The position numbers were made by a program, and so were the translations under genes. Under the pieces are notes generated by a model. It saw only the letters and a program-made list of their open reading frames with translations, was not told where the DNA came from and ran no database searches. Of a stretch of DNA of 61,819 nt, positions 2 to 43,525 are shown in pieces. Source of the DNA: an uncultured Pseudomonadota bacterium (GTDB lineage: Bacteria > Pseudomonadota > Alphaproteobacteria > RF32 > CAG-239); contig CASGEB010000009.1 in assembly GCA_949300375.1 (NCBI GenBank), positions 1 through 61,819 on the forward strand, written 5' to 3'. Positions within the stretch are counted from its first letter, which is position 1; the number at the start of each line of letters is the position of its first letter.

Positions 2-562
2 TATTCCAGCGAAACCGGATGTTCCTGCGGAACTTATTCCTGCTCTGACGGCTGCGGCGGAACAAGAAAATGTTGTTCTTCCTGTCCCGACCCCGAACCA
101 GAGCCGGATCCTACGCCAAGCTGCACGCATTCAACCCACAAAAGCTGCTCTTACGGCTGCGCATCTTATTGCCCTTGTTGTTCCGCCTGCAAAACCTGCA
201 AATCCGCTCCGCCTATTGAGGACGATGATGAAGAGGATACCACGCCTGTCGACCCCTGCGCCGGCGTATCCTGCCCAACAGCAAAAACTTGCTCTAACGG
301 TTGTGCAAGCAGTTCAACTGCTACAAGCTGCTGCCCGTCCGTATGCACTTCGTGCAAACCATGTTACATATGCTATGGGACTTGTTATGATGAACCTATG
401 TCTGAATGTGCCGGTTCTTGCTACCCGAGTGGCTGGTCTTGCATTGACTATCCGGAATGGGAAGATCCCAGCTCTCCTGGGGCTGGAAACGCCACTTGGT
501 ATTATTGCGCCTGTCCGCCCGGATATAAAAATATGAGCGATTGCAGTTGTTCTCTGCAATAA
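2..562 (+). CDS. Cysteine-rich protein, 3' part (5' end outside the window)
   Basis: My own translation of frame +2 (not in the ORF track because it has no start codon): YSSETGCSCGTYSCSDGCGG...CPDPEPEPDPTPSC...EDDDEED...WYYCACPPGYKNMSDCSCSLQ*. It is open for 186 codons with 33 Cys and stops at TAA 560-562. Confidence 0.85.
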   Translation, partial: YSSETGCSCGTYSCSDGCGGTRKCCSSCPDPEPEPDPTPSCTHSTHKSCSYGCASYCPCCSACKTCKSAPPIEDDDEEDTTPVDPCAGVSCPTAKTCSNGCASSSTATSCCPSVCTSCKPCYICYGTCYDEPMSECAGSCYPSGWSCIDYPEWEDPSSPGAGNATWYYCACPPGYKNMSDCSCSLQ

Positions 563-6185: not shown

Positions 6186-7736
6186 TTACGCTGCCTTTTC
6201 CTCACCGAGATATTCTGCCAGAAAACCGTCATAAAAGGCTTTAAGGGCACTCTCGGTATCTTCGGAAATAATCCTGTCTTTTCTGATACTTTCCAAAAGT
6301 TTCGGCTGATTTGCCTTCAAAGACGCAATGGCTTTTTTCTCAAAATCCTGCACTTCTTTAATGGCAATTTTATCCAAATATCCTTTGACACCGGCAAAAA
6401 TCGCCACGACTTCTTCTTCAACCGGCATCGGATGATTAACCGGCTGTTTCAAAAGTTCGGTCAGACGGGCTCCGCGCGCCAGCAGATTCTGCGTAGATGC
6501 ATCCAAATCGGAAGCAAACTGTGCAAACGCCGCCATTTCGCGATACTGAGCCAATTCCAATTTGATAGAACCGGCAACCTGTTTCATGGCCTTAATCTGC
6601 GCGGCAGACCCCACACGACTGACGGAAATGCCGACATTTACGGCCGGACGCACGCCCTGAAAGAACAAATTGGTCTCCAAAAAAATCTGCCCGTCGGTAA
6701 TTGAAATCACATTGGTCGGAATATAAGCCGAAACGTCTCCGGCCTGGGTTTCAATAACCGGCAGTGCGGTCAGAGAACCGGCGCCTTCTTCGTCGCTCAT
6801 TTTAGCCGCACGCTCCAGCAAACGCGAATGCAGATAAAAGACGTCGCCCGGATAAGCTTCACGCCCCGGCGGGCGGCGAAGAAGCAAAGACATCTGGCGA
6901 TAAGCCGTCGCCTGTTTGGACAGGTCGTCATAAAAGATAACGGCATGCATACCGTTGTCGCGGAAATACTCGCCCATTGCGCATCCGGAATACGGAGCCA
7001 GATACTGCATCGGCGCTGAATCCGACGCCGTTGCGGCCACGACAATGGTATAATCCATCGCGCCGTGATCCCGCAAAGTTTTAACAACCTGGGCAACGGT
7101 AGAACGTTTTTGTCCTACCGCAACATAAATACAATACAATTTATCTTTTTCCGATTTTGCTTTATCGTTAATCGACTTCTGGTTCAAAATCGTATCAATG
7201 ATAATGGATGTTTTTCCGGTCTGGCGGTCGCCGATGATAAGTTCGCGCTGGCCGCGGCCGATTGGAATAAGGCTGTCAATTATCTTCAAACCGGTCTGCA
7301 TCGGTTCATGAACGCTGCGGCGTGCAATAATGCCCGGAGCCTTAACTTCAGACATGCTGTACTCAGCGGCTTTAATCTCGCCTTTGCCGTCAATCGGTTT
7401 TCCGAGTGCATCAACCACGCGTCCGAGCAGTTCTTTGCCGACCGGAACGCTGACGATGCTGTCCGTTCTTTTAACCATATCGCCTTCGCGGATAAATTCG
7501 TCCGAACCGAAAATAACCACACCGACATTGTCTTCCTCCAGGTTCAGAGCCATTCCCTTAACACCGCTGGAAAATTCTACCAGTTCGCCGGCCTGAACTT
7601 TTTCCAAGCCATAAACTCGTGCAATTCCATCACCGACAGACAAAACCTGCCCGACTTCGGCCACATCGGCCATAATGTCGGAACCTTCGATTTTTTCTTT
7701 GATAATGGAAGATATCTCGCTGACGTTTACAGACAT
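6186..7736 (-). CDS. atpA: ATP synthase F1 alpha subunit
   Basis: [31 protein letters not shown]. Confidence 0.98.
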
Positions 7737-8636: not shown

Positions 8637-8980
8637 GTTTTAATGGTCATCCTCGGGCGGCTGGTTTTAATGGTCATCCCCGGGCGGCTGGTTACTTTAC
8701 GGTCATCCCCGGGCTTGACCCGGGGATCCACAGGCAACGGCAGGGGTTGTGAATAACATAACACCCGTCATTGCCGGACTTGCCCTGCTCGGCAGAGTTG
8801 GTGAATGGCAAAGGACTTTAAAAGCATTGTCATCCTCGGGGCGGCTTGTTTTAATTGTCATCCCCGGGCTGCGACCCGGGGATCCAAATGAACAATAAAG
8901 CCTTATGATTGACCTGGATTCTCGGATCACACCCTCAGGGTGACGCCAAGTGGATTGCCGGGTCAAGCCCGGCAATGACA
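8637..8980. repeat. Cluster of GTCAT...ATCCA REP-like palindromes and half-units in the cassette leader
   Basis: Full units at 8702-8730, 8857-8886 and inverted 8951-8980; variant at 8915-8946; 27-bp tandem half-units gttttaatggtcatcc[t/c]cgggcggctg at 8637-8690. Confidence 0.85.
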
Positions 8981-9015
8981 TAAGAAAAGAATTTTTATAA
9001 GGGAGGAGACCGAAA

Positions 9016-10512
9016 ATGAAAAACACTATGCTACACATGAAACTAAACGCTGCGGTGTCGGTATTTTCCATCGCCGCCGCTTTCTCGGTCTTTCTCCCAG
9101 CCTCTAATGCCTATGGTGGAATCTGTTTCTTGCCCGACTGTAATTTAGACTTACCATCATATGACGATGTCAACTCAGATTCTTCCTGGTGTCTGGACAA
9201 CGGTTATTACTTCTCTTGTCCGGACGGAACCTCTCCTGATTATTCTCAAACCTGCCCGCGTGATGAGAGTTATACCAAATGTTCTGCCGAACAATGGTGC
9301 AAAGACCAAGGATATGACAAAACAGAAGAATATTGCCGAAGTTTGGGAGACACCTGGTATGCCGACAAGGACACCAAATGTCCGAATGGTCAGAATTTAT
9401 ATAAAGAATGTGTCGAAGACACCGCCCAGGCCTGTGAGGACAAAGGTTATGTCAACAACTGTTCCCGTCCCGACAAGACCGAACTCTGCGAATGGAACTC
9501 TTCCTTTGCAAAATGCTGCAACGACACCGAATCAAACGGATGTCCCGAGAACTCGAAAGTTTCCGGCTGTGAAAACGGCACGATTGTCGGACAGGACACC
9601 TGCGGTTATGACTGTCATCAATGTTGTCAAACCTCCTGTCCGGCCGGTTATGCCTATACCGATGAACAAACTTCCGGCGGCACAAGCGGATATATCAAAG
9701 ACGGGGATGATTACTGTCTGCATTGCACGCGCGGAAAACTATATAAACGGAAAGAAAACCCCTGCACCGGTTATGACCTCTGCTCCGGTTATGGCGGGGT
9801 TGATAACGGGGACTATTGCTACACAGGTAACACAAAAAAATACTCAAAATGCCGCGAAGAATGTTTGCCGGGATATATTGAATGGTGCGACGCGCCGATA
9901 ACCGATTGCGAAAAGTTGGGATACAAAAAAACAGTTTCTCAATGCAACGGAAAATTTTCTTTCACCTGTCCGTTTAACAAAGACAAAGTTTTCTGCGCGG
10001 ATGATTGCAGCTATACTTTCACGGCATCTGACTGTGCCAGCCAAAACAAAAATATTGGTTCACAATCATGCACTCGAAACGGGACAACCTATTATGCCTC
10101 TTGTGGAACGACTTGCACAAACGGAAACTGTACATCCACACCTTCACAATCAGAATGCAACTACGTCTATTTGGCGTCAGATTGCGCCAACCAATGCAAA
10201 GATGTTGGGAGCAAATCATGTACCCGTGATGGAAAAACTTACTATGAAAGCTGTGGCAACACCAAATGTGCTGAAGACAAGCTCTGCAATGATAAAGGAA
10301 GCTGTATTACGCCATGGTACGGATATTGCTGCGATGATGTAGGATCCTGTGATACAACATTTTGCAAAGCATATAATTATCCGGATTGCAGCGATGTCAT
10401 AAACAGCTGTAAAAGCTTGGGAAGAACACCGAAATTTGACCGCTGTACCCAATCAGCCTCTGCTCATGTTGCAATATATACATGTGAAAAAGAATACCAA
10501 TGCTACATCTAA
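9016..10512 (+). CDS. Secreted cysteine-rich modular protein (long N-region + A + B + B + C modules)
   Basis: RBS gggagg at 9001; hydrophobic signal peptide ending ASNAYG; dense Cys; paralogue of 41518-42777. Confidence 0.9.
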   Translation: MKNTMLHMKLNAAVSVFSIAAAFSVFLPASNAYGGICFLPDCNLDLPSYDDVNSDSSWCLDNGYYFSCPDGTSPDYSQTCPRDESYTKCSAEQWCKDQGYDKTEEYCRSLGDTWYADKDTKCPNGQNLYKECVEDTAQACEDKGYVNNCSRPDKTELCEWNSSFAKCCNDTESNGCPENSKVSGCENGTIVGQDTCGYDCHQCCQTSCPAGYAYTDEQTSGGTSGYIKDGDDYCLHCTRGKLYKRKENPCTGYDLCSGYGGVDNGDYCYTGNTKKYSKCREECLPGYIEWCDAPITDCEKLGYKKTVSQCNGKFSFTCPFNKDKVFCADDCSYTFTASDCASQNKNIGSQSCTRNGTTYYASCGTTCTNGNCTSTPSQSECNYVYLASDCANQCKDVGSKSCTRDGKTYYESCGNTKCAEDKLCNDKGSCITPWYGYCCDDVGSCDTTFCKAYNYPDCSDVINSCKSLGRTPKFDRCTQSASAHVAIYTCEKEYQCYI

Positions 10513-11084: not shown

Positions 11085-11831
11085 ATGAAAAAAGGATTAC
11101 TATTAGGCTCTGTCGGAATATTAACCATTCTCGGAAACACAAAAATCCAAGCCGGATGCATTCCGACTAACGATTGTTCTTCTTTAGGATACAAATACAC
11201 TAAAGATGAATGTTCTGGGCAAGGGATTGCCTGCCCCTTCGACGCTGCCAAATATAATTGCGAAAACCCGTGTACATACAAGGTGAGCCTTTCCGACTGT
11301 TCATCCAAATGTTTAAATAATGGTACAAAATCATGCACAAGAAACGGAACAACCTACTACGAATCTTGTGGCGTTTCCAAATGTTCCAGCGGATATGAAT
11401 GTCAAAACGGAAAATGCGTAACAGCATGTACCTATACATATTCAGAATATATGTGCAGCCAGGAATGCAAATCGCCGGCCGGACGTTCTTGTACAAGAAA
11501 TGGTATAACGTTCTATGAAAGTTGCGGAAATTACAAATGCCCAAGCGGAAAAAAATGCTACGAGGGCAGTTGCTACACCCCCGTTCCGGTCGGCGAATAC
11601 TGCTGCGGATATGAAAACCAATGCGGATACAGCGGGGGAACAAGCAGTTCTTTCGATAGCAGATGTTACAGCATATACGGACAAAGTTGTTATCAAAAAT
11701 GCAGATCCATGGGATACCCTGATTGCACAGACTGGATACCAAGCTGCTATGCAACGGGAAATTCTCCCCAGAGAAAAGGATGCAGTTCTGACGGAAATGC
11801 AACAAACTATGCTATAAGCTGGTATTGTTAA
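11085..11831 (+). CDS. Secreted cysteine-rich protein (A + B + B + C)
   Basis: Start revised to MKKGLLLG (RBS aaggga); CIPTNDCSSLGY...ACPFD; two SCTRNGxTxYESC repeats; CCGY...YPDC. Confidence 0.9.
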   Translation: MKKGLLLGSVGILTILGNTKIQAGCIPTNDCSSLGYKYTKDECSGQGIACPFDAAKYNCENPCTYKVSLSDCSSKCLNNGTKSCTRNGTTYYESCGVSKCSSGYECQNGKCVTACTYTYSEYMCSQECKSPAGRSCTRNGITFYESCGNYKCPSGKKCYEGSCYTPVPVGEYCCGYENQCGYSGGTSSSFDSRCYSIYGQSCYQKCRSMGYPDCTDWIPSCYATGNSPQRKGCSSDGNATNYAISWYC

Positions 11832-24786: not shown

Positions 24787-25386
24787 TTACTGACATACAT
24801 AATATGCATTGCCAAAATAACCATAGTAACTATCTCCTTCACAAAGCTGGAAAACAGGATTGCGGCCGGAAGCACGGCAGCTTGCATGCATATCGCTGCA
24901 ATCCGGATAACCGCGGTATCTGCATTGTTCATAACAGCTCCGGCCATAGTAGCTTTGACAATAACTGTCATTGGAATTTGAAGTTCCGCCATTATACCCG
25001 CATTCATAAACATATCCGCAACACCAGCCGCTTGCTGAAACAGAAGTAAAACACGTTCCGTTATAACAGCTTTGCCCGCTTGAGCATTTGGAAGAACCGC
25101 AGGAAGCGTAATAAGTTACGCCATTTCTGACGCAGGAGGAAGAGCCTGGGTTTTGGCAGTTAGCGGCGCAGGCCTCGGCGGTGTAGGTGTAATCGCAGGT
25201 CTGCGGGTCGAAACAAAAATATTTTGTTGTGTCAAACGGACATTTAACCCCGTCGTTCGGGCATTCATCGGCGGTATATTTATAACCCATTGCCTCACAG
25301 TCCGGGGTCTGGGTGCAGGCCGCTAAGACATAACCGGATGCAAGAGCGGTACAGCACAAGGCGCTCCAAAAAATATATTGTTTCAT
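24787..25386 (-). CDS. Secreted cysteine-rich protein (A + B + C)
   Basis: Start revised to MKQYIFW (RBS gggagagg); CTQTPDCEAMGY...KCPFD; SCVRNGVTYYASC; CCGY...GRSCYEQC...YPDC...YVCQ*. Confidence 0.9.
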   Translation of the reverse strand: MKQYIFWSALCCTALASGYVLAACTQTPDCEAMGYKYTADECPNDGVKCPFDTTKYFCFDPQTCDYTYTAEACAANCQNPGSSSCVRNGVTYYASCGSSKCSSGQSCYNGTCFTSVSASGWCCGYVYECGYNGGTSNSNDSYCQSYYGRSCYEQCRYRGYPDCSDMHASCRASGRNPVFQLCEGDSYYGYFGNAYYVCQ

Positions 25387-41177: not shown

Positions 41178-41240
41178 TAGCCAAAATACCACTCCAACTT
41201 TTCATTAATCATTGACACTGGCGTTTTGTTGTGGTATAGT
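41178..41240 (+). promoter_or_regulatory. Conserved cassette promoter, copy 3
   Basis: GCCAAAAT at 41180, TTTTCA at 41199, TTGACA 41212-41217, 17-bp spacer, TATAGT 41235-41240. Confidence 0.8.
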
Positions 41241-41307: not shown

Positions 41308-41517
41308 CCTGCACGGCAGGCGCGCGGCGAGTTGAATGCACTGAGCTCAAGAGACCGCGATGCTATGACGGGGTTTGGAATGACAAAAGAAGAAAAGAAT
41401 TTTTATTAACTATTCCGGGCACGATGTTGTTCGGAAAAAAGAAAAGAGCAACGCGAAAGCTTTGGCACGATGATGACAAATGATCGGGTCAAGCACGTTT
41501 GCTTGGGGAGGAGACCG

Positions 41518-42777
41518 ATGAGAAATTATAACACTATGCTACACATGAAACTAAACGCTGCGGTGTCGGTATTTTCTATCGCCGCTGCTTTCTCGGTCTT
41601 CCTCCCGCCCTCTAATGCCTATGGAGGAGTCTGTTTTTTGCCTGACTGTAATCTGGACGGCACCTCTTTTGATGACGTCAACTCCGATTCTTCCTGGTGT
41701 ATTGATAATGGCTACTATTTCACCTGTCCCGAAGGCACGGCTCCTGATTATTCTCAGACCTGCCCGCGTGACGAGAGCTACACCAAATGTTCCTCCGAGC
41801 AATGGTGCATTGACAACGGTTACACCAAAACCGCTCAATCCTGTTATGACCTCGGGCCGACCTGGTTCCCGCAAAACCTCTGTCCAAAAGGCTTTGACCT
41901 CTACAAATCCTGTGTCGAAGACACCGCTCAGGCCTGTGAGGACAAAGGCTATGTCAACAACTGTTCCCGTCCCGACAAGACCGAGATTTGTGAATGGGAT
42001 TCTTCTTTTGCCAAATGCTGCAACGATACCGAATCAAACGGATGTCCCGAGAACTCGAAAGTCTCAGGCTGTGAAGACGGCACGATTGTCGGACAGGACA
42101 CCTGCGGTTATGACTGTCATCAATGTTGTCAGACCTCCTGTCCGGCCGGTTATGCCTATACCGATGAAGAAACCTCCGGCGGCACGAGCGGATATATCAA
42201 AGACATGGCGAATGAAGACGATTACTGTCTGCACTGCACACGCGGCAAACTGTATAAACGGAAAGAAAACCCCTGTACCGGTTATGACCTCTGTTCGACT
42301 TATGGCGGGGTTGATAACGGGGATTATTGTTATACGGGGAATACGAAGAAATATTCGAAATGTCTGACCGAATGCCGGCCGGGATATATAGAATGGTGCG
42401 ACACGCCGGTCACCGATTGTGAGAAACTGGGCTATACGCAGACGGCGGCGGAATGTGCGAACGTGCCGGCTGTCGCCTGCCCGTTCAACGGGGATAAGTG
42501 GTATTGTAAAGATTACAGCAATGTCCCGACGAGCGGGCGCTGTTGCGGATATATTAACGATTGCGGATACAACGGAGAAACATCAAGTTCTTATGATTCT
42601 AATTGTCAAAGTTATTATGGCAGAAGTTGTTATGAACAGTGCAAGAGTTATGGATTCCCTGATTGTCCTGATATGCAGGCGAGCTGTCGAGCCTCAGGCG
42701 GTACCCCGGTCTTCGATGGTTGCAACTACGACGGCTACCCCACCAACGACTACCTCGCCTACTTCCTCTGCCAGTAG
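41518..42777 (+). CDS. Secreted cysteine-rich modular protein (long N-region + A + C)
   Basis: RBS ggggaggag; signal peptide nearly identical to that of the 9016 gene; C-module CCGY...GRSCYEQC...PDC...FLCQ*. Confidence 0.9.
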   Translation: MRNYNTMLHMKLNAAVSVFSIAAAFSVFLPPSNAYGGVCFLPDCNLDGTSFDDVNSDSSWCIDNGYYFTCPEGTAPDYSQTCPRDESYTKCSSEQWCIDNGYTKTAQSCYDLGPTWFPQNLCPKGFDLYKSCVEDTAQACEDKGYVNNCSRPDKTEICEWDSSFAKCCNDTESNGCPENSKVSGCEDGTIVGQDTCGYDCHQCCQTSCPAGYAYTDEETSGGTSGYIKDMANEDDYCLHCTRGKLYKRKENPCTGYDLCSTYGGVDNGDYCYTGNTKKYSKCLTECRPGYIEWCDTPVTDCEKLGYTQTAAECANVPAVACPFNGDKWYCKDYSNVPTSGRCCGYINDCGYNGETSSSYDSNCQSYYGRSCYEQCKSYGFPDCPDMQASCRASGGTPVFDGCNYDGYPTNDYLAYFLCQ

Positions 42778-42788
42778 TCGTCTCTGCC

Positions 42789-43019
42789 TGTCATTGCCGG
42801 GGGATTTCTTCTTTTGTCATTCTCGGGCTGCGACCCGAGAATCCAGATAAAAAAGAAGCCATATGATTGACCTGGATCCCCGGGTCAAGCCCGGGGATGA
42901 CAAATAAAAAAAAAGAGCCCGGGGATGAAGAAAGAAAAAAGAGAACCAGGGGCTGAAAAAATAAAAAGGTGCTTAGGAATGACAAATAAAAAAGTGCTTG
43001 GGATAACAGAATAGAAAAC
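42789..43019. repeat. Inverted REP doublet plus tandem degenerate half-units
   Basis: Full units at 42816-42845 and inverted 42873-42902; half-units start at 42789, 42917, 42945, 42971 and 42996. Confidence 0.8.
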
Positions 43020-43042: not shown

Positions 43043-43483
43043 ATGAGAAAAGGAATGTTGATAACCGTGGCGGGGATGGCTTTGTTAGCCGGAACTGCCG
43101 ATGTCCGGGCCGCTTGTATTCCGACGCAGGACTGCGCCAGCCTCGGCTATAAATACACCGCCGCACAATGCCCCGACGGCGCCATCGCCTGCCCCGATGA
43201 CAGCGGCTCCACCACCCCAGACCCGGCTCCTTCCGTCCCGACAAGCGGATATTGCTGCGGGTATACGACTTATTGCGGATATAGTGGAGGAACGTCAAGT
43301 TATAGTGACTCAAGCTGTCGTAGTTATTGGGGTAGAAGTTGTTATGAACAATGCAAGAGTTATGGATACCCTGATTGTACTGATATGCACGCCCGTTGTC
43401 GAGCCTCCGGCGGTACCCCGGTCTTCCAGGGTTGCACCAAGGGCTACAACACCAACTTCGTCGCCCTCTTCGCGTGCCAGTAG
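43043..43483 (+). CDS. Secreted cysteine-rich protein (truncated A + Pro/Thr linker + C)
   Basis: RBS aaggag; signal peptide ending ADVRA; CIPTQDCASLGY; C-module ending FACQ*. Confidence 0.9.
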   Translation: MRKGMLITVAGMALLAGTADVRAACIPTQDCASLGYKYTAAQCPDGAIACPDDSGSTTPDPAPSVPTSGYCCGYTTYCGYSGGTSSYSDSSCRSYWGRSCYEQCKSYGYPDCTDMHARCRASGGTPVFQGCTKGYNTNFVALFACQ

Positions 43484-43495
43484 TCGTCTCTGCCT

Positions 43496-43525
43496 GTCAT
43501 TGCCGGGCTGCGACCCGGCAATCCA
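43496..43525. repeat. REP-like palindrome
   Basis: gtcattgccgggctgcgacccggcaatcca. Confidence 0.85.

Follow-up and report, generated by a model that had tools for sequence, protein, structure and literature searches.

The window analysed here, a stretch of 61,819 nucleotides, is contig C9 of the chicken-gut metagenome-assembled genome (MAG) G000 and carries two related genes on its + strand, A and B (Table 1), which resemble each other in a patchwork manner. Both belong to a family of lineage-specific, secreted, cysteine-rich, modular proteins with about 50 copies in this uncultured gut alphaproteobacterium. The C-ending tail of B is probably the variable loop of a diversity-generating retroelement (DGR), in a previously undescribed cysteine-rich target family, and it is orphaned in G000. 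Taken together, the data are in our view probably best explained by a mosaic family whose C-terminal module has long carried G/T-ending codons and whose loop of NNC codons is a (former) DGR variable region (VR), most likely frozen here. Exchange within a multigene family ordinarily leaves such a patchwork, and the useful result is the identity of that family.

The loop of B (42724-42768) consists of 15 codons, all of which are NNC, and ends 9 nt ahead of the stop codon. We compared the same position in 25 family tails from G000 and its relatives. Codon positions 1 and 2 are hypervariable in these loops, the length ranges from 8 to 20 codons, and NNC accounts for 144 of 213 loop codons in G000 and for 97 of 127 in the relatives. 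Among the 340 loop residues, K, E and R occur ten times altogether, and Q, M and W do not occur. We read this pattern as a DGR product, because it is what adenine mutagenesis of AAC codons yields: adenine-specific mutagenesis would convert AAC to NNC, and the loop, with a cysteine at either end, could then hold any of 15 residues at each such codon. With its variable codons of the AAY-derived type (NNC or NNY) at the C-terminal end of the open reading frame (ORF), B shows the expected arrangement. Its loop may be regarded as a DGR variable region, and was presumably written by such an element. A preliminary description of this DNA had taken the C-ending block for a signature of the replication strand; we ascribe its NNC codons to DGR adenine mutagenesis instead.

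Cassettes of the appropriate kind are found in the same genus, where 7 out of 10 genomes carry a reverse transcriptase (RT); G000 has none. The locus of genome G001 comprises, in this order, a gene of the type that we call type-1, a 247-aa target, Avd (PF22296, 63.9 bits, cut-off 40), the template repeat (TR) and the RT (RVT_1, 68.8 bits). The TR reads ...TTC CAG AAT TGC (AAC)4 GAC (AAC)4 GCC AAC TTC GCG TGC CAG TAG, and all 13 mismatches between it and the VR in cis occur at template adenines. A second target, at another locus of G001, has kept the fixed GAC and GCC codons. In genome G008 the template reads (AAC)3 GAC (AAC)6 GCG AAA; apart from the deletion of one codon there are 16 mismatches, 15 of them at A. 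Both AAC-run templates sit at the position of the B loop, and residues 164-247 of the G001 target align to 42517-42774 of B at 69%. A 24-nt AAC/GAC word was matched against the genome contigs and gave 95 stretches; of the 80 loci examined, the two in G001 and G008 have family context. The other word matches were rejected as family templates, being low-complexity sequence. The TR pattern was found in G001 only among 11 genomes of the genus, and it had no match in 61 genomes of the taxonomic family, a sample that does not contain G001 and hence has no positive control.

The genus also harbours a second, ordinary type of DGR. Contig C39 of G002 (L039) carries RT and Avd together with a TR/VR pair of 114 nt at 11348-11461 and 7274-7387, whose 16 mismatches all affect template A, as read on the coding strand. 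In G004, a row of AAC-rich repeats is located near an RT (contig C6, L045, 4730-6400).

Within the window, the small gene downstream of B provides a further comparison. Aligned with the G001 TR, its end (43416-43483) differs at 17 positions, 13 of them at template A and 4 at other bases; the fixed GCC is kept, and the loop at 43436-43468 has the same length as the G001 template. The sequence TGCCAGTAG and a GC-rich stretch, candidates for the IMH that would be expected just after a VR, are shared with both the VR and the TR of G001. Elsewhere in G000, on contig C2 (86024-86539, - strand), a family tail has an unusually long Asn-rich loop with AAC in 7 of 13 consecutive codons, much as if an AAC template had been copied there with hardly any mutation.

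The MAG G000 comprises 57 contigs and 1.64 Mb, is 98.9% complete and stems from a short-read assembly. It contains neither RVT_1 nor bAvd matches, tblastn with the RT and Avd of G001 returned none, and no TR was found by a scan for AAC-rich frames or by the TR pattern; all these searches for a DGR cassette in the G000 assembly were empty. The former site can be located. Contig C37 is syntenic with the G001 DGR locus at 81% over 8.5 kb, but its VR counterpart passes directly into post-TR sequence; nothing on C37 corresponds to Avd or RT, and about 700 nt taken up by REP-like repeats precede the renewed synteny. Beside the syntenic block, an RT is likewise absent in G010, the genome of a sister species, and in G007, and present in G009. 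A 23-nt tandem duplication splits the type-1/B-type gene at this former DGR locus (C37:1-935, L142) between two frames, with ORFs at 1-531 and 432-812, and probably makes it a pseudogene.

Variation of the loop was studied in 23 sequencing runs, compared as contigs rather than raw reads, so that rare variants are dropped. Over 42682-42798 or more, runs X1, X2 and X6 show no difference in the tail of B, and X5 is identical up to 42750. These runs represent three studies (X1 and X2 belong to a single study and may be the source sample, X6 belongs to a second and X5 to a third), and no variant letters fall into the loop among the differences listed. One joint in X1, 42723>42812, probably derives from another paralogue. 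We conclude that the loops of the window are most likely orphaned and frozen or fossil.

An alternative is that a DGR is still active on B, its cassette being unassembled, unbinned or acting from a mobile element. We consider this unlikely, although it explains one fact well: the RT-less genomes G000, G010 and G007 retain loops with NNC in 13-15 of 13-16 codons. An old cassette loss is hard to square with them, because they are still NNC despite a synonymous divergence (dS) of about 0.9 between B and L003, the copy of a more distant species. Moreover, congeners have their RT cassettes at the ends of contigs (G009:C18, with the RT from 485) or on short ones (G008:C83, 3121 nt), and the smallest contig of the MAG has 3460 nt. 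Against an active element stand the syntenic locus, which is assembled through without Avd and RT, the absence of any Avd or RT fragment anywhere in G000, and the identity of the B loop in contigs from three studies.

In G000 the family amounts to 53 ORFs or fragments (100 aa or longer) with 12,326 codons in total, about 2.3% of the genome; contig ends truncate 32 of them. Seven members lie in the window (Table 1). The proteins of A and B have a signal peptide and a Cys content of 10-11%, and they matched no Pfam or NCBIfam family. For the family or its C-terminal module, a profile search found no PDB relative at E<=1, and there was no Atlas match and nothing in Rfam. Sequence search returned 49 relatives, every one unnamed or 'hypothetical', and a profile search against 1.84 billion representatives gave 17 relatives at E<=1e-30. 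A literature search with term look-ups in survey papers found no description of the cysteine-rich family; in PMC8144416 the terms cysteine, Alphaproteobacteria and AAC had no match. DNA nearly identical to the window was present in metagenome runs of chicken gut and of birds, 8 studies in all; the bacteria with this family come from such runs and from other MAG records. The cysteine-rich proteins may well be binding proteins.

In its architecture, A is a type-1 part joined to an almost complete target-type protein with a decayed loop. The true start of B is probably an internal ATG ahead of MLHMKLN. No sequence above 82% identity to the C-terminal module of B was found within the genus. The composition steps along B coincide with module borders.

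Table 1. Members of the cysteine-rich family in the window and subdivisions of gene B (positions in the window)
Feature	Position	Strand	Remarks
Partial family gene, other subtype	2..559	+	at contig edge
Gene A, 498 aa	9016..10512	+	type-1 N-terminal part, two Cys repeats and C-terminal module with decayed loop
Small family gene, decayed loop	10538..11059	+	tail as conserved between species as flanks
Small family gene, decayed loop	11085..11831	+	tail as conserved between species as flanks
Small family gene, G-rich coding strand	24787..25386	-	loop mainly NNT/NNA, NNC in 2/15 codons
Gene B, 435 aa as listed	41470..42777	+	type-1 Cys-rich N-terminal part fused to last ~85 residues of DGR-target-type module
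Segment S3, A as outlier	41770..41912	+	A-B 60.8%, dS saturated; L004-B 95.8%
Segment S4, homogenised tract	41913..42175	+	A-B 93.5%, dS 0.30; holds 89/90 stretch 42079-42168
Segments S6-S7, B-type allele, G/T-ending codons	42301..42540	+	residues partly common with A; synonymous sites saturated
T-ending part of DGR-target-type C-terminal module	42541..42723	+	ends in pre-loop motif
Conserved pre-loop motif CRASGGTPVFxxC	42685..42723	+	aligned across 25 family tails
Loop of 15 consecutive NNC codons between last two cysteines	42724..42768	+	candidate DGR variable-region footprint
REP-like hairpin 3' of B	42816..42844	+	pattern search and fold
Small family gene, DGR-target type, 146 aa	43043..43483	+	loop 43436-43468; 43416-43483 aligns to G001 TR

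The preliminary description had started from a patchwork of identity between A and B, and this patchwork is plainly there. The stretches 9577-9666 and 42079-42168 match at 89 of 90 nt, with exact runs of 55 and 36 nt and a single difference, CAA/CAG. Further downstream, the peptide DYCYTGNTKKYSKC is encoded at 9811-9852 and at 42322-42363 by codons of which 11 out of 14 differ, every change being synonymous. In ten of the 11, a codon with final C or A at 9 kb stands against one with final T or G at 42 kb; the exception is GGT/GGG.

For a comparison by segments we aligned A and B with copies of the same genome (C37, C19, C6 and C49), with the copies L001, L002 and L004 of G010, and with L003. 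By synteny, L004 is the orthologue of A (90.7% over 1332 nt, and 92% over 3481 nt downstream). The synonymous divergence between A and B is uneven: it amounts to 1.13 in S2, is saturated in S3, falls to 0.30 in S4 and 0.57 in S5, rises to 2.01 in S6 (42301-42420) and is saturated again in S7. Orthologue pairs show 0.10-0.42 in S3-S7 and 0.55-0.82 in S2; only A-L004 is saturated in S3. Counted as codons with a synonymous difference, A and B differ at 11/82 in 41914-42175 vs 14/34 in 42301-42420 (Fisher p=0.0022), compared with p=0.45-0.83 for the same test in the control pairs, i.e., two orthologue pairs and B-L003. Other statistics for A-B are modestly significant. The level of the maximum chi-square over sliding windows of 30 codons was reached in 234 of 5000 permutations, and the longest run of matching polymorphic sites, 42077-42129, has p=0.0235 in a GENECONV-style test, uncorrected for 15 pairs. 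The asymmetry in the direction of third-position changes across 42301-42420, a region picked post hoc, is 11:2 (binomial p=0.02).

Trees of the individual segments disagree with one another. In S6-S7, A and L004 are separated from all other copies at 100/100. In S4, A groups with the copies C37 and C6end of its own genome (88/94), and the group of L004 consists of B, L001 and L002. The S3 tree shows no difference between L004 and its G010 paralogue L008, and the branch of A has a length of 0.5-0.6 changes per site. This is a case of concerted evolution, as in S3 paralogues within G010 are closer to each other than orthologues are: L004 is 99.3-100% identical to L001, L006, L008 and L009, and 63.6% identical to A. 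The pair L001-L004 shares a run of 64 matching polymorphic sites (p<0.0005 in the run test).

Could two old paralogues have come to look like this with no exchange at all, through a constraint or mutation rate that varies along their length? S4 does encode a conserved cysteine-rich core, in which all copies are 79-98% identical. It is not simply slow-evolving, however, because B and L003 have diverged equally in S4 (dS 0.93; 23/75 codons with a synonymous difference) and in S6 (0.84; 12/36; p=0.83). The strongly supported shifts of topology between segments, and an A that differs by 36% in S3 from an orthologue identical to its own paralogues, likewise speak against this disfavoured explanation, which we regard as very improbable. 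Thus, the earlier proposal of exchange among dispersed loci is borne out by uneven A-B divergence next to even control pairs, incongruent segment trees, concerted evolution in G010 and the L001-L004 run. Segmental exchange among dispersed copies is supported as real, strongly significant in the sister genome and modest for the A-B tract.

An artefact of assembly, in which the contig jumps between paralogues at shared k-mers, is likewise very improbable. What speaks for it is the nature of the data: a short-read MAG in which many family ORFs are cut by contig ends and the contig ends overlap by 99 nt. The longest exact match between A and B, 55 nt, is shorter than this overlap. The arrangement of B recurs in the independently assembled G010 (L001 and L002; 95-98% in S3, S4 and S6, 92-97% in S5 and 91% in S7), and unitigs of other runs span the S4/S5 and S5/S6 borders (42144-42282 and 42262-42410) with zero differences.

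According to the mechanism that we propose, the copies would evolve through mutual recombination or gene conversion and through module shuffling, and stretches of A and B would therefore differ in age. The tract 41913-42175 would have been homogenised around the split of the window species from its sister species and not recently; 42301-42540 would represent two old allele types; and within 41770-41912, A or its orthologue would have been overwritten after the species split. Near-identical donors, which had been expected for imported segments, were not found in the assembly. The best matches to 42301-42540 in the same genome, C37 and C19, reach 88-92.5%.

The changes in third-position composition along B were also seen as described before: in windows of 20 codons, G occupies 7-10/20 third positions within 42310-42489, T 10-13/20 within 42550-42669 and C 16/20 within 42700-42759, on a + strand that is C-rich (negative GC skew in 29 of 30 2-kb windows). 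In G000, third positions follow the replication strand. The GC skew at third positions (GC3 skew) correlates with the skew of the coding strand (r=0.71; 1248 long-ORF proxies), and K3, which denotes the G+T share at third codon positions, is 0.605 in leading-strand genes (n=354) vs 0.442 in lagging-strand genes (n=242). The first two thirds of B are C/A-ending like the adjacent lagging-strand genes. The block 42301-42540 has a leading-like composition on the lagging strand, and K3 in S6 and S7 of B is about 0.64 (0.62-0.65), compared with a 99th percentile of 0.613 in 894 lagging windows of 80 codons.

These values are the main argument for a rival account, in which a paralogue with a long history on the leading strand was the source of 42301-42684, the G/T-ending block, so that the blocks of B record an exchange between opposite strands. 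Three further observations are in agreement with it. The type-1 gene of G001, on the leading strand, has a K3 of 0.65 throughout (0.54-0.72), so that residue composition does not fix K3 in this family. On contig C3 of G001 (L040), GC skew changes its sign from -0.1 to +0.2 about 1 kb ahead of the type-1 gene in gene orientation, so that the DGR locus comes just after this switch; 1 kb of DNA next to it has 30% GC, and the switch could mark a replication origin. Finally, the contrast in K3 between strands is damped among the family genes (0.495, n=9, vs 0.458, n=19; p=0.07, with the many NNY codons as a possible confounder), as would be expected if copies move or exchange; it is suggestive of movement between strands.

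On the other hand, the block does not behave as an import into B should. In all 9 B-type copies its K3 is 0.48-0.65 irrespective of the flanking skew (-0.18 to +0.16), and in S6 the C37 copy, which alone lies clearly on a G-rich strand, has a lower value (0.50) than B (0.65). The same codon choices are found in the G010 copies, which are 95.8-97.6% identical in this block and likewise lie on C-rich coding strands. T occupies 20-27 of 48 third positions in the C-terminal module part of the 9 B-type copies on either strand, and 16/44 in A and L004. Between L004 and L002 of the sister species the direction asymmetry is 10:2, echoing the 11:2 of A-B; any transfer must be older than the species split because of this recurrence. 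In addition, the assembly holds no donor above 92.5% identity, and the C-ending block is accounted for by DGR activity and not by strand. We therefore hold the leading-strand donor to be doubtful. Of the strand histories inferred in the preliminary description, the dependence of third positions on the replication strand and the leading-like character of 42301-42540 have held up; the recent import from the opposite strand has not, given a block that is kept in G010 and whose K3 does not follow the strand of its carriers. The G/T-ending codons are an old property of the module, and a recent import into B is not supported. An old residence of this module on the leading strand, e.g., at the DGR locus, is possible.

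Two observations on strand composition may be added. Contig C49 (reversed; skew -0.2 in gene orientation) meets C37 (+0.2) within a family gene of G000 via a 99-nt overlap. The small gene on the - strand at 24787-25386 has a GC3 skew of -0.44, compared with +0.2 to +0.4 in its neighbours, despite a G-rich coding strand.

Several points weigh against our explanation as a whole. A template repeat for the B loop was not found, and direct homing into B rests on the codon pattern and the family context. The B loop has 13 variable codons followed by TTC CTC, compared with 11-12 codons ending in TTC GCG or TTC CGT in the known templates. The NNC loops of RT-less genomes, discussed above, fit poorly with a long-lost cassette; as contigs omit rare variants, the stasis of the loop is unproven, and X1 and X2 possibly represent the source sample. 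Taken alone, the A-B tract is modestly significant (p=0.02-0.05). The MAG derives from short reads with 32 of 53 family ORFs at contig ends, and the join of C49 and C37 is supported by its 99-nt overlap only.

Further elements accompany the family genes. The most repeated piece of the family is the leader with the signal-peptide part (41470-41612 in B and 9001-9127 in A). Eleven contigs of G000 carry it at 14 further places, with 70-97% identity, and congeners have it at dozens of places; it takes in about 60 nt 5' of the likely start codon, with the reading frame kept open. Upstream of B, a sigma-70-like site with TG matches at 11 of 12 positions (41212-41240). REP-like hairpins of the form GTCATTSYCGG...CCGRSAATCC lie beside family genes at 8952-8979 (-), 42816-42844 (+) and 43496-43524 (+), i.e., three matches in the window vs 0 expected. 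One starts 39 nt past the stop of B (z=-1.7) and one 13 nt past the stop at 43483 (z=-2.9); such hairpins are common genome-wide, with related repeats on dozens of G000 contigs. They may serve as substrates for rearrangement.

From a biological point of view, these host-associated gut Alphaproteobacteria with small genomes spend about 2% of their sequence on secreted cysteine-rich proteins with a retroelement-written C-terminal loop. G001 and G008 offer concrete loci for a DGR with a nearly pure AAC template and a very short VR, and the active-looking, orphaned and decayed loops form a natural series for dating DGR loss. The analysis also contains a caution: runs of a single letter at third positions can mark a mutagenic mechanism and not a strand bias. 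As a tentative idea, somewhat short of an even chance in our estimation, we put forward that the family represents a DGR scaffold of a new kind. Its secreted module would be small and disulfide-rich, and the tip would be a single contiguous loop, 11-15 residues long and fully randomisable, which two cysteines close and an (AAC)n template encodes; the module occurs in dozens of copies, is fused to larger cysteine-rich proteins by recombination and exchanges segments between copies on both strands. The NNC loops of RT-less species would then hint at a trans-acting or mobile cassette.

Three known systems are suited for comparison. When a gene changes its replication strand, GC and TA skews re-equilibrate slowly. 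G000 resembles such cases in its strong strand-specific third-position bias and in the one block of B that misfits its strand, but all examined copies and species show this misfit as a property of the module, and neither an inversion nor a donor can be traced. Concerted evolution and segmental gene conversion are known from the surface-protein families opa/pil of Neisseria, msp2 of Anaplasma and vls of Borrelia. The family shares with them the dispersed paralogues, the patchy identity, a similarity within the genome that exceeds that of orthologues in some segments, and a conserved leader. It differs in lacking an architecture of expression site and silent cassettes or evidence of programmed switching, and its tip loop is varied by a retroelement rather than by cassette recombination.

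Among DGRs, known variable proteins are Mtd of the Bordetella phage BPP-1, TvpA of Treponema and LdtA of Legionella. The likeness to known DGRs lies in the order of target, Avd, TR and RT in the congeners, a VR at the extreme C-terminus, mismatches at template adenines and several targets per template. Tandem AAC repeats in DGR templates, with indels beside AAC runs, are described by Wu et al. 2018 (PMC5758913), and such indels fit the loop lengths of 8-16 codons in the family. In contrast to known DGRs, a C-type-lectin signature was not detected by sequence in the family module; the variable part is continuous, with 11-15 codons flanked by two cysteines, and the module around it has about 85 residues, 10 of them Cys; and the targets come from a family of about 50 copies, some of them fused to a larger cysteine-rich protein, whose loops are orphaned in G000.

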